Shown here: positions 23,984 through 36,986 of the stretch, in pieces
How the letters are laid out: each line of letters opens with the position of its first letter
Position numbering within the stretch: the first letter of the stretch is position 1
DNA from: an uncultured Gemmatimonadales bacterium
GTDB lineage: Bacteria > Gemmatimonadota > Gemmatimonadetes > Palauibacterales > Palauibacteraceae
Direction of reading: 5' to 3'
Assembly (NCBI GenBank): GCA_963783385.1
Contig: CAWANJ010000003.1
Location: 192,001-256,000 of the forward strand
Length of the DNA: 64,000 nt
Made by a program: the position numbers and the translations under genes
Notes under the pieces: generated by a model
The model's input: only the letters and a program-made list of their open reading frames with translations
What the model was told of the DNA's origin: nothing
The model's database searches: none

Positions 23984-24188
23984 TGACTCTCTCCGGTCTT
24001 GGGAGTACCGCTTTCGAACGGTCGGGTCCCTCCCCGCAGCGCGCCGCGACCCTCCGACACAGGGCGGAGAGCCACCACGGTAGGCGAGCAGACCCGAGAC
24101 GAGGAAGCTAGACCGCCGGAGGCGCCGAATCAACGGCGACGCGGCCGGGGTGGGAGGGAGCGGGGAGGAGGGTGGGGCTCCCGGACGG

Positions 24189-25129
24189 CTATTCGAACAG
24201 GTGGTCGCCGAGCAGGTAGGGACGCGGGTTCACGTGGTGGCCGTTGATGAGGACCTCGTAGTGGAGGTTCGGTCCGGTGGCCAGCCCGGTCTCTCCGACC
24301 CGCGCGATGACCTCGCCGCGCTCGACGTGCTCGCCCTTGTGGACGAGGATCCGGGAAGCGTGCGCGTAGCGAGTTTGGTAACCATACCCGTGGTCGATCT
24401 CGACCATGTTGCCGTAGCCCTCGTCCTTGCCGGCGAACACCACTCGCCCGGGTGCGGCGGCCCGGATGGGGGCGCCCAGCGGCGCCGACAGGTCCAGGCC
24501 CTCGTGCGGACGGTTGTAGAGCAGGATGGGATGGTAGCGGCTGCGGCTGAAGCCGGAGCTGATCCAGGACTCGTCCGCCGGGACGGGCCGGATGGAGGGA
24601 CGGGCCAGCATGACCGCGCGGTGGACGCGCAGGGAATCCGTCGCCTCCGAGAGGCTGGTCGTGAGCAGCCGGGCGCGGCGCAGGAGCACGTCCAGCGTCG
24701 AGGCCACGTCCTCCGTCTCCCCCCCGCCCGCGGGTCCAGCCTGGCCAGCGCCTGGTGCACCGGGTCCGAGACGGGCGGACCTCCGACGCCCACCGCCTGG
24801 ACGTCGGGGTCGAGGAGGGGGAGGCCCGCCGCGAGACGGTAGCGCTCCTCCCGGCTCGAGAAGTCGTCCATGGCCCGGGTCAGCGAGCCCACGCGCCCCT
24901 CGATGTCCCGCAGGCTGACCAGCAGCGTGCGGTTCTCCGAGCGCAGACGGGAGGCCTCGGCGGCCCGCCAGGACGTGCGTACCAGGAAGAACAGGCCCGT
25001 GCCGGCCGCGAGCACGACGAGGAGCGCCGCCGCCAGCAACAGCCGGACGGTCCGCTTCCGGATGCGGAAGTTGCGCGAAACGCCGTCGGCGCTGTGGGGC
25101 AGGATCTGGACGGTCCAGCCTGGCTTCAT
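24189..25129 (-). CDS. M23 family peptidoglycan endopeptidase; frameshift in a G7 run at 24719-24725
   Basis: N-terminal TM plus coiled coil in one frame; HEGLD, YAH, TGPNLHYEV in the next frame. Confidence 0.88.
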
Positions 25130-25191
25130 GCTCACGTCGCGGTTAGAGCCGTGCCCGGATGAAGCTCGAGAAGGATGATGTTCTCCAGCAA

Positions 25192-25311
25192 TCCGTGCAC
25201 CACCGCCGTATACGGACGATCGCAAGCCTATGGGAGCCCCTGTGTTGACGGTTTCATCACCGGGGACTTTGGGCTCCCCGTGCCTGGCCGCGACCTGCAC
25301 CGGTTGCAGGA
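25192..25311 (-). ncRNA. candidate structured RNA in the M23 leader (unclassified)
   Basis: three nested stems: 25192-25205/25301-25311, 25220-25228/25286-25293, 25232-25239/25271-25278; lies downstream of a sigma70 promoter. Confidence 0.45.
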
Positions 25312-25338
25312 CGTGTGAAAAAGGTGCGCAGTGCGAGC

Positions 25339-25367
25339 AGGTTATGTTGCAGGATCGAGGCCGTCAA
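25339..25367 (-). promoter_or_regulatory. sigma70-type promoter TTGACG-N17-TAACCT
   Basis: -35 at 25362-25367 overlaps the metG stop; -10 at 25339-25344. Confidence 0.6.
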
Positions 25368-26890
25368 GCGTCGTCCCGCGGAAACAGGACGGCTCCGCCC
25401 GCCACCCGGGTCAGGCCGGCGGCTCGATCCTCCAGCGCGTCGAAGGACGGGACGGGTCCCTCTCCACCCAGCCGCTCCCAGAGCGTGCGCGACTTCCCCG
25501 GGAGGAAGGGGGTCAGCATGACGGCGGTGGCGGCCAGCGCTCGCAACAGCGAGCCCAGGGAGGCGTCCAGGGCTCCGGGCCCGGCACCCTCGTCCCGCTC
25601 GGCCCGCGCCAGGTCCCACGGCCTGGACCGATCGACGAAGCCGTTCGCCTCGCGGACCAGGTCGAGCGCGGCCTGCGCGCCCCGGTGCAGGAGGAGCGCT
25701 TCCATGGAGGCGTGGTAGTCGGACAGGGCGGCGCGCCGCGCGTCGTCCAGCTCCGTGTCGTCCCCGGCCGGGACGCGGCCCTCCCGGTACTTGCGTACCA
25801 TGGCCACGACCCGGTTCAGGAGGTTGCCGAGGTCGTTGGCGAGCTCGGCGTTGTAGCGCTCGTCGAAGCTCGCCAGCAGCTGGGCCGGTGACCCGAAGTC
25901 GCGGTCGCCGTCCCAGGGCGTCTCGCGCAGCATGAAATAGCGGAACGCGTCGGGCCCGTGACGCTCGACCAGGGCCTCGAGCTCCAGGCGGGCCCCGGCC
26001 GACTTGGAGATCTTGCCGCCCTCGACGCTGACGAAGCCGTGGCCCCACACCGAGCGAGGCAGCTCGATGCCGGCCGACAGGAGCATGGCGGGCCAGATGA
26101 CGCAGTGGAAGCGGGTGATGTCCTTGCCGATCACGTGCAGGTCGGCCGGCCACCACTCGCGGTACGCGTCGTCGGGGAAGCCGACGGCCGACAGGTAGTT
26201 GGTGAGCGCGTCCAGCCACACGTACACGGTGTGGTCCTCGGCCCCCGGGAAGGGGATGCCCCACGGGATCCGGGAGCGGGAGGCCGACACGTCCTCGAGC
26301 CCGCCCTCCAGGAGCCGCACGATCTCGTTGCGGCGGCTCTCGGGACGGATGAAGTCCGGGTGGGCCTCGATGTGCGCGAGCAGGGGATCGCGAAAGCGGG
26401 ACAGCCGGAAGAACCAGTTCTCCTCCTCCGTCCACGCGATCTCGCGGTCCGGGTGCAGCGGACAGCGGCCGTCCGCGAGCTCGTCCTCGGCGCGGAAGGC
26501 CTCGCAGCGCACGCAGTACCAGCCCTCGTACGTCCCCATGTAGAGGTCGCCGGCCTCCCGCACCCGCTCGACCAGCGCCGTGACCGCGCGGGCGTGCCGC
26601 GACTCGGTGGTTCGGATGAAGTCGTCGTAGGAAACGCCGAGGCTGTCCCACACGGCCCGGAAGCGGGCGGCGAGCTCGTCCACGAGCTCGGCCGGCTCGA
26701 TGCCCCGCCGGGCGGCCTCCTGGGGGATGCTCTGCCCGTGCTCGTCCATGCCGATGACGAAATGCACGCGGTCCCCGCGCAGGCGACGGTACCGCGCGAT
26801 GGCGTCCGCGCCGATCTTCTCGAACGCGTGGCCGGCGTGCGGCTCGCCGTTGGCGTAGTCTATGGCGGTGGTGATGTAGAAATGGCCCAT
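25364..26890 (-). CDS. metG: methionine--tRNA ligase (short form, no C-terminal tRNA-binding OB domain)
   Basis: YITTAIDYANG, HAGH, YVWLDAL, IGKDITRFH, KISKS, LANDLGNL. Confidence 0.96.
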   Translation of the reverse strand: MGHFYITTAIDYANGEPHAGHAFEKIGADAIARYRRLRGDRVHFVIGMDEHGQSIPQEAARRGIEPAELVDELAARFRAVWDSLGVSYDDFIRTTESRHARAVTALVERVREAGDLYMGTYEGWYCVRCEAFRAEDELADGRCPLHPDREIAWTEEENWFFRLSRFRDPLLAHIEAHPDFIRPESRRNEIVRLLEGGLEDVSASRSRIPWGIPFPGAEDHTVYVWLDALTNYLSAVGFPDDAYREWWPADLHVIGKDITRFHCVIWPAMLLSAGIELPRSVWGHGFVSVEGGKISKSAGARLELEALVERHGPDAFRYFMLRETPWDGDRDFGSPAQLLASFDERYNAELANDLGNLLNRVVAMVRKYREGRVPAGDDTELDDARRAALSDYHASMEALLLHRGAQAALDLVREANGFVDRSRPWDLARAERDEGAGPGALDASLGSLLRALAATAVMLTPFLPGKSRTLWERLGGEGPVPSFDALEDRAAGLTRVAGGAVLFPRDDA

Positions 26891-27840
26891 CAGCGGCGGT
26901 CGGTCCCCTCCGCCCGCCCGGGATTCCCGGGACGGCCACGGGCCTCGCGCTTGAGCTCCTCGAGCGGCAGGGTGCGTCGCTCTCCGTGATCGTCCTTCAG
27001 GGTCACCGTCTCCTTGAACAGGTTCCAGCCCACGACCGTCTCCTGGCCCCGCGAGGTGCCCAGCGTCTGGCCCTCCCTGGGGAAGCGCTTACGGGCCTGC
27101 AGGTAGGCCTCGTGCTCGTAGTGGAGGCACGACATGAGCCGCCCGCACGCGCCCGAGATCTGGGCCGGATTGAGGGAGAGCCCCTGGTCCTTGGCCAGCT
27201 GGAGCGTGACCGGCTGGATCTCCGGCAGCCAGGCGCGGCAGCACAGCTCCCGCCGGCAGCGCCCTATCCCGCCGAGGCGCCGGGCCTCGTCGCGCACGCC
27301 GATCTGGCGCAGCTCGATCCGGGTGCGGAACTCGCCCGCCATGTCGCGCACCAGGGCCCGGAAGTCCACCCGCTTGTCGGCCGTGAAGTACACGGTGAGC
27401 TTGTTGCGGTCCCACTGCCACTCGGCCTCGCTCGCCTTCATCTTGAGGCCGTGCTTCTCGACCAGTTCGCGAGTGCGCGTCCGCACATCGGCCTCGTGGG
27501 AGCGGAGCTCGAGCAGCCGCTCCACGTCCACGGGCGCCGCCCGGCGCAGGACGCGCCGGGGCGGCGGGATGACGGGCCGATCCCCGGCATGCTCGCATCC
27601 GCCGTCGCAGGTCAGCTCGTCCGCGTGGGCGGCCCGGTGCACCCACCCCAGGTCGCGGCCGCGATCCGCCTCGACGATGACGTGCTCCCCTTCGACGAGG
27701 GGGACCGCCTCGCGAGCGGCGTAGTACTCTCGCCGCAGACCCTTGAACTGGACCTGCACCACCTGTACGTCCCGCTCCGCCGCGACGGGGCGGGGCCCCG
27801 CCGGGCGTGGCGCGACCGGCTCCGGGACGCCGGGGCTCAA
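26890..27840 (-). CDS. ricT: PSP1/RicT (YaaT) family regulatory iron-sulfur protein
   Basis: RVDFRALV, RIELRQIGVRDEA, GRCRRELCC, ISGACGRLMSCLHYE. Confidence 0.9.
   Translation of the reverse strand: MSPGVPEPVAPRPAGPRPVAAERDVQVVQVQFKGLRREYYAAREAVPLVEGEHVIVEADRGRDLGWVHRAAHADELTCDGGCEHAGDRPVIPPPRRVLRRAAPVDVERLLELRSHEADVRTRTRELVEKHGLKMKASEAEWQWDRNKLTVYFTADKRVDFRALVRDMAGEFRTRIELRQIGVRDEARRLGGIGRCRRELCCRAWLPEIQPVTLQLAKDQGLSLNPAQISGACGRLMSCLHYEHEAYLQARKRFPREGQTLGTSRGQETVVGWNLFKETVTLKDDHGERRTLPLEELKREARGRPGNPGRAEGTDRR

Positions 27841-36911: not shown

Positions 36912-36986
<75 letters not shown>

Follow-up and report, generated by a model that had tools for sequence, protein, structure and literature searches.

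The 5′ leader considered here precedes a gene for an M23 peptidase and lies between this gene and metG, on the minus strand of a 64-kb window (the whole stretch of DNA that was analysed) from the genome of an uncultured Gemmatimonadales bacterium, hereafter G000. An earlier reading of the letters alone, the original prediction, had taken this leader for a switchable cis-regulatory RNA for peptidoglycan remodelling. That claim is not upheld, since the leader has no conserved multi-helix fold and is confined to one locus of one clade. A plainer reading is favoured, and we hold it to be rather probable: the stretch is an ordinary, lineage-specific 5′ untranslated region (5′ UTR) of the M23 gene, transcribed from its own sigma-70-type promoter, for the most part drifting neutrally, and it is no riboswitch. 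In the alignments, selection appears visible only on the promoter, on a T-rich block together with a small hairpin (P1), on three short TTG(C) islands and on the 20 nt that precede the start codon. The features on which the argument turns are, in the 5′ to 3′ order of the minus strand, the following.

25339..25367, minus strand: sigma-70-type promoter of the M23 gene, with the −35 hexamer TTGACG at 25367-25362, a spacer of 17 nt and the −10 hexamer TAACCT at 25344-25339.
25130..25338, minus strand: 5′ leader, about 209 nt lying between the −10 hexamer and the ATG, judged non-coding from its substitution pattern and from in-frame stops.
25314..25329, minus strand: T-rich block GCGCACCTTTTTCACA, directly 5′ of P1, seen as conserved columns in alignments A2 and A3 of the five leaders.
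25294..25310, minus strand: hairpin P1, CCTGCA-ACCGG-TGCAGG, a perfect DNA palindrome whose stem is invariant in the five leaders.
25223..25293, minus strand: nested rod formed by TCGCGGCC/GGCTTGCGA, GGGAGCCC/GGGCTCCC and CGGT/ACCG, its helices 62.5-75% paired over the five sequences.
25187..25202, minus strand: conserved block TGGTGCACGGATTGCT (alignment A3), similar to the 3′ arm of P1 and a potential pairing partner for its 5′ arm.
25130..25148, minus strand: conserved block CTCTAACCGCGAC and GTGAGC right before the ATG (alignment A3).

Orthologous leaders were collected in two ways; G003 and G001 denote genomes of the same genus, and L-numbers denote other metG-M23 loci. A DNA search of 60 relatives with an 801-nt query found the leader only in G003 (95% over the whole query) and in G001 (70%), and four other genera matched in the metG part only. 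Another genome of the genus, G002, gave no leader match; as it is 70% complete, absence from it is not shown. A scan of metagenomes with the G003 protein returned 19 loci. L112 and L113 carry the G003 leader, L114 the leader of the window and L115 that of G001, while L116 and L117 (protein 75% and 74% identical) contribute new leaders. The alignments are built on five distinct alignable leaders that represent three lineages, {G000, G003}, {G001} and {L116, L117}. Between G000 and G001 the identity of the spacer is 0.66, to be compared with 0.52-0.62 at the third codon positions of the flanking genes; the corresponding values are 0.86 and 0.78-0.89 for L116-L117, 0.57 and 0.56-0.58 for G000-L116, and 0.48 and 0.53-0.58 for G001-L116. 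On these comparisons the leader as a whole appears to drift about as fast as synonymous sites. The alignments of the five leaders show complete sequence turnover between the conserved islands, and across the phylum the leaders extend from 9 to 278 nt past the promoter, with sequences unrelated between genera.

The promoter remains conserved when the comparison is extended to the 62 loci with a direct metG-M23 spacer of at most 700 nt (among L002-L103), in which the spacer measures 34-466 nt. Of these 62 spacers, 54 (53 of the 60 distinct ones) carry the motif TTGACN-N16-18-TANNNT on the sense strand and 0 carry it on the antisense strand; among controls of 600 nt of M23 coding sequence (CDS) it is likewise present in 0 of 62, on either strand. 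Three of the eight spacers that lack the motif (L033, L034 and L043) have a TTGACA box with a near variant, for example CAGTTT, or with an off-spacing TAGCCT. In G000 the TTGACG box overlaps the stop codon of metG. The promoter is retained in G003 and G001, and L116 and L117 carry TTGACG-N17-CAACGT in its place. The original prediction had called TTGACG-N17-TAACCT canonical; its hexamers, their spacing and their conservation in orthologs stand, but the adjective was overstated, because TAACCT agrees with TATAAT at three of six positions. It is for this reason that a generic consensus promoter scan missed it, reporting no promoter in 24000-27000. The promoter is nonetheless credible because the motif is conserved in orthologous spacers, a comparative argument, and these data suggest that the M23 gene has a promoter of its own throughout the phylum. 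Transcription probably starts near 25333-25331.

A frequent form of the motif in the metG-M23 spacers is TTGACA...TAGCTT.

The folded structure does not share this conservation. All the stems listed in the original prediction can be drawn in G000: both arms of the three nested helices occur, the 36 pairs of the nested structure are without exception standard, and the hairpin GAGAA/TTCUC is found at 25185-25168. The fold is also a strong one, since the 221-nt stretch reaches −92.2 kcal/mol with a z-score of −3.00 (1 of 200 dinucleotide shuffles as good) and the 212-nt leader a z-score of −3.62 (0 of 100). With 100 shuffles for each sequence, the z-score is −0.59 for G003, although its leader is 94% identical, +0.65 for G001, −0.27 for L116 and +0.12 for L117, and it ranges from −1.52 to +1.22 in ten leaders of other genera. 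The excess in predicted folding energy is peculiar to G000 and is not a property of the element. When the nested structure is laid on the five-leader alignment, 70.6% of its cells are paired, compared with 64.2% in shuffles and 35-41% when the structure is slid along the alignment, and six pairs have changed on both sides against 4.4 in shuffles, a number that 117 of 500 shuffles reach. Helices 2-5 of the structure keep their 62.5-75% pairing mainly through G000 and G003, by construction, and the nested stems are broken in the other three of the five leaders (G001, L116 and L117). A sequence-conserved run, ACCGTCAAC...GGCTTG, does lie within the rod at 25252-25223. In G001, however, only the 3′ arm GGGGCTCCC has been conserved and the 5′ partner has been lost; therefore the conservation of this run is not owed to the rod helix. 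The RNAalifold consensus of the five leaders has −29.58 kcal/mol, the sum of −33.5 from folding and of a covariation penalty of +3.92. No aptamer-like conserved core with covariation was found among the five orthologous leaders, a set whose three lineages give the comparison low power. The rod-with-bubble described in the original prediction is specific to G000 and G003; most likely it arose incidentally, when a small number of lineage-specific substitutions accumulated in a GC-rich RNA, and is no ligand-sensing aptamer. Of the structure proposed, what passes into the orthologous leaders is the small hairpin P1, with a stem that is conserved but does not covary.

The leader does not correspond to a known RNA family either. 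A cmscan of the whole window against Rfam at gathering scores reported only a tRNA at 36912-36986, and a scan of 24950-25550 at E ≤ 10 (Rfam 15, 4227 models) gave no match in the leader, the only hit being to P35, inside metG at 25396-25436, which scored 19.1 bits (E 2.3) where the gathering threshold is 70. The M23 RNA motif, which we take to be among these models, did not match at this threshold, a result to be read as a model search and not as a direct comparison with the motif's consensus and taxa. The covariance models of ydaO, of 6S RNA and of the cyclic-dinucleotide families found nothing in the leader even at E ≤ 10, so the resemblance to ydaO and 6S RNA once suspected is dropped, and the admission that no family could be assigned proved right. 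In its own 3.54-Mb genome the 238 nt had only the self-match in a BLAST search. An nhmmer profile of the five leaders, run against the genome and all collected loci, returned 12 rows, which are the training sequences and their duplicates, and neither P1 nor the conserved blocks turned up in the remaining orthologous spacers of the 62-spacer set. The leader appears from these searches to be restricted to a single locus in one genus-level clade of Gemmatimonadota.

In Actinobacteria and Firmicutes, riboswitches of the ydaO-yuaA type, which respond to cyclic di-AMP (c-di-AMP), sit in the 5′ UTRs of cell-wall hydrolase genes and control them. The leader differs from them in having neither a model match nor a core conserved across orthologs. 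It resembles 6S RNA in the long imperfect rod with an internal bubble of the minimum free energy fold of G000, but it has no match to the 6S model, and the rod is lost in G001, L116 and L117. Moreover, the stretch leads straight into a start codon without a terminator-like site, which is the position of a leader and not that of a free-standing gene. The control of cell-wall hydrolases by ydaO-yuaA is mentioned as a general statement in PMC5737381. The same paper (Weinberg et al. 2017) describes the M23 RNA motif, a candidate cis-regulatory element in presumed 5′ UTRs of M23 peptidase genes, which does not bind c-di-AMP and for which no ligand is known. By position and by gene this motif is the closest known thing, as it occupies the same place, the 5′ UTR of an M23 gene; it is defined by a covariation-supported consensus over many sequences, and the leader has no such consensus. 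Among the matches listed by a full-text search of the literature there was no paper on an M23 leader of this kind in Gemmatimonadetes.

P1 is the sole helix of the original prediction retained in all five distinct leaders. Its stem takes a 6-5-6 form, CCTGCA-N5-TGCAGG (G000), or a 7-3-7 form, CCTGCAA-N3-TTGCAGG, closing over the loops ACCGG, ACCGA, GGC or GCC. Five of the six pairs never vary, the two cells scored as unpaired are an alignment gap, and there is no covariation. The predicted probability of P1 is 0.77-1.0 in G003, G001, L116 and L117. Stabilising stem-loops near the 5′ end are known in bacterial messenger RNAs, for instance the hairpin of the ompA 5′ UTR, and P1 resembles these, as well as leaders that occlude the ribosome-binding site (RBS), in being a short, stable hairpin near the 5′ end of a long leader whose start region is predicted to be in secondary structure. 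It differs from the ompA-type hairpin in that it is not at the very end, its distance from the likely 5′ end being estimated at 20-25 nt (about 40-45 nt in L116 and L117), and in the invariance of its stem sequence, a sign of specific recognition.

An intrinsic terminator or attenuator at P1 was considered and rejected, since no T-run follows the stem on either strand. The terminator scan reports nothing there or elsewhere in the leader; its one terminator-like site in 24000-27000 is within the M23 CDS.

The region around the start codon has no good Shine-Dalgarno sequence, only a weak resemblance in GAG at −6 to −4, and positions −12 to −1 are predicted to be mostly paired in all five leaders, with mean unpaired probabilities of 0.03-0.44 that are given without a baseline for GC-rich RNA. 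GCTCGC (25338-25333), at the beginning of the leader, can pair with GTGAGC (25135-25130), at its end, in a closing helix of five pairs. This helix is 80% paired and three of its five pairs change on both sides, as counted on the same five sequences of three lineages from which RNAalifold proposed it; it scores 0.52 for covariation, a value reached by 2 of 500 shuffles, which give 0.18, and the score does not exceed 0.16 when the helix is slid.

Taking P1 and the start region together, we propose the following model. P1, a hairpin of 6-7 base pairs located about 25-45 nt into the transcript, would be recognised by a protein or an RNase as a stability or processing element, providing post-transcriptional tuning. 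Most of the weak ribosome-binding region would be held in base pairs, some of them formed with the leader's 5′ end, and the paired start region would keep the translation of a potentially lytic enzyme low.

In a sister clade (L033, L034, L036-L038, L042, L043 and L119-L125) an invariant GTCCCGCYCGG is placed about 6 nt after the −10 hexamer and is followed by a hairpin-like sequence, whose stem changes jointly, as judged by eye, from GCTCGG/CCGAGC to GCCCGG/CCGGGC. This conserved 5′ element of the M23 gene is distinct from the one in G000.

Several points weigh against the interpretation of the leader as an ordinary 5′ UTR: (i) five sequences from three lineages give the absence of covariation little power; (ii) the strong z-score of G000 stands, and its accidental origin is not demonstrated; (iii) in G000 itself P1 has a predicted probability of about 0.17, as the long-range fold competes with it; (iv) an invariant stem that does not covary fits sequence-specific recognition, of RNA or of DNA, better than a purely structural stabiliser; (v) the covariation of the closing helix, deriving from an RNAalifold prediction on the same alignment, is a hint only, and (vi) both the transcription start site and the existence of the leader RNA are inferred.

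The fourth point leads to the main rival explanation, control at the DNA level, which we regard as unlikely. Here a dimeric transcription factor would bind the palindrome, close behind the promoter, as its operator and repress the gene as a roadblock, and the GGCTTG and GGATTGC islands would be further protein sites. An invariant stem with a variable centre fits an operator equally well: the stem bases do not change, the centre varies in sequence and shifts from the 7-3-7 to the 6-5-6 form, and this pattern is typical of half-site recognition. A hairpin acting purely as RNA would, moreover, tolerate covariation, and P1 shows none; in addition, every lineage has three islands that contain TTG(C) (alignment A3). 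An operator is less easily reconciled with the distance from the −10 hexamer to the palindrome, which is 28 nt in G000, G003 and G001 but 47 nt in L116 and L117. Nor does the genome-wide site search make a regulon visible, as the relaxed palindrome CCTGCA-N5-TGCAGG has four sites, against one for a reversed control, and the three sites outside the leader have different centres. No regulator gene is adjacent to the M23 locus, the same-strand neighbours being accA, a PSP1-domain gene and metG upstream, and an open reading frame (ORF) without a Pfam assignment and a fadB-like gene downstream.

A narrow, clade-specific RNA switch with two states is quite unlikely. Its components would be P1, the block at 25187-25202 with its likeness to the 3′ arm of P1, and the conserved block that precedes the start codon. 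P1 would alternate with the pairing of its 5′ arm to 25187-25202, and a cell-wall or second-messenger signal, through a ligand or an RNA-binding protein, would shift the pairing and expose or hide the weak RBS, opening or closing the start region. The original prediction had described the hairpin as mutually exclusive with the long fold, and part of this stands: P1 is found at 25310-25294, and the partner block is conserved in sequence as well. The alternative helix is 78.2% paired over the five leaders, with four of its 11 pairs never varying, but it loses pairs in L116 and L117, and the alternative pairing is weakened there. The predicted ensemble favours the long-range fold in G000 and P1 in the relatives, as if the two states were energetically close; no known family accounts for the leader, and M23 and lysM genes of other phyla bear cis-regulatory RNA motifs (PMC5737381). 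The switch is opposed by the lack of a conserved multi-helix core, the region from P1 to the block turning over between lineages, by the absence of excess stability in four of the five leaders, and by a distribution confined to one locus of one clade with near-neutral divergence. Its positive support is limited to the conserved complementarity.

It is very unlikely that the promoter alone matters, the rest of the spacer being functionless and the islands a product of short divergence times and chance. The agreement between the overall identity and that of third codon positions is as expected for such a spacer, and so are the broad range of leader lengths in the phylum, the unrelated sequences between genera and the four loci in which merely 34-37 nt separate metG and the M23 gene. 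Against it, neither 13 positions in the stem of P1 nor the block preceding the start codon vary in three lineages whose neutral sites are about 50-60% identical, the improbability of this being an estimate.

The weakest alternative, that the stretch codes for an N-terminal extension of the M23 protein or for a conserved upstream small ORF, is hardly credible and was rejected, because codon periodicity is lacking and in-frame stops occur in L116 and L117. It draws on the frame in register with the M23 ATG, which is open across the whole spacer in G000 (from 25363) and in G003 and for 213 nt in G001, and on the codons GGT GCA CGG ATT GCT GGA, which differ from those of G001 solely at third positions. 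Between the leaders of G000 and G001, however, the substitutions in frame 0 are distributed as 27/24/26 by codon position, with seven synonymous against 35 non-synonymous, and they are even over codon positions in all three frames. A stop is met in frame 41 codons upstream of the M23 start in L116 and L117, in other genera the frame ahead of the start may be open over no more than 51 nt, and indels of 1 nt separate the conserved blocks (alignment A3). All M23 orthologs begin a few codons ahead of a conserved W-T-V-Q. A short upstream ORF of G000 (25257-25228, minus strand; ATG and eight codons, then TAG) has no counterpart of its ATG in the leaders of G003 or G001, so that the small ORFs are not conserved; L116 and L117 have a short ATG-x-CTG-TAA. 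The lack of codon periodicity, the in-frame stops and the 1-nt indels show that the leader is non-coding. The proposal of a leader of about 200 nt behind an M23 promoter is supported, with a length of about 210 nt and a conserved promoter.

If the leader is an ordinary 5′ UTR, little changes, as it is one more lineage-specific structured 5′ UTR. The case does illustrate that a strong folding z-score of a single sequence can vanish in a sister that is 94% identical. The analysis also yields, for an uncultured phylum, a promoter consensus with good support (TTGACA-N17-TAnnnT, before the M23 gene, 54 of 62 loci), as well as the metG-M23 pair conserved across Gemmatimonadota and the removal of a spurious frameshift from the M23 gene. 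Were the leader a switch, it would be a new and very narrowly distributed class of regulatory RNA for cell-wall remodelling in Gemmatimonadota, and a handle on the control of a potentially autolytic enzyme in a little-studied phylum.

The two genes that enclose the leader are the following.

25364..26890, minus strand: metG (methionyl-tRNA synthetase), the upstream gene, an ORF with a Pfam match to tRNA-synt_1g (E 2e-99).
24189..25129, minus strand: M23 peptidase gene (LytM-domain, MepM/ShyA-like), from the reading frames and a Pfam Peptidase_M23 match on the G003 ortholog.

On the minus strand, read from 25600 to 24900, the TGA stop of metG is at 25366-25364 and the start ATG of the M23 gene at 25129-25127. 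The order metG-M23 is widely conserved in Gemmatimonadota; in a few additional loci about 1.1-1.3 kb separates the two genes. The M23 protein has a transmembrane segment at its N-terminus and a coiled-coil-like region. On the intact G003 ortholog the Pfam match to Peptidase_M23 has E 1.7e-35, and the NCBIfam matches (MepM, ShyA and others) cover the domain only and are far under the cut-offs. In G000 the M23 frame is interrupted near 24718: the frame 24230-25363 holds the N-terminal part, and the frame 24189-25142 the LytM domain. One C is absent from the assembly after 24718. Since contigs of all four public DNA runs, from four studies, carry the extra C, and since the orthologs of G003 and G001 are unbroken (313 aa), the frameshift is an assembly error; the gene is intact and no pseudogene.

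Canonical M23 enzymes have P-H-x-H at a position where the orthologs of this protein have an invariant P-N-L-H-Y-E (residues 287-292 in G003 numbering), the Asn being present in all six aligned sequences (alignment A1). With Asn in place of the first His, the M23 domain may be catalytically altered or may serve as an activator. In L035, L039, L044 and L049 a conserved in-frame L-Q-L-E-F-F-Q-(K/S)-E-K precedes the W-T-V-Q motif by about 20 codons, which suggests that in these clades the M23 protein has an earlier start (TTG) and a longer cytoplasmic tail. The public runs also contain two variants, 24978 C>T in the M23 gene, in contigs of three of the four runs, and 25162 A>G inside the leader, in one run, where G003 has the same base.

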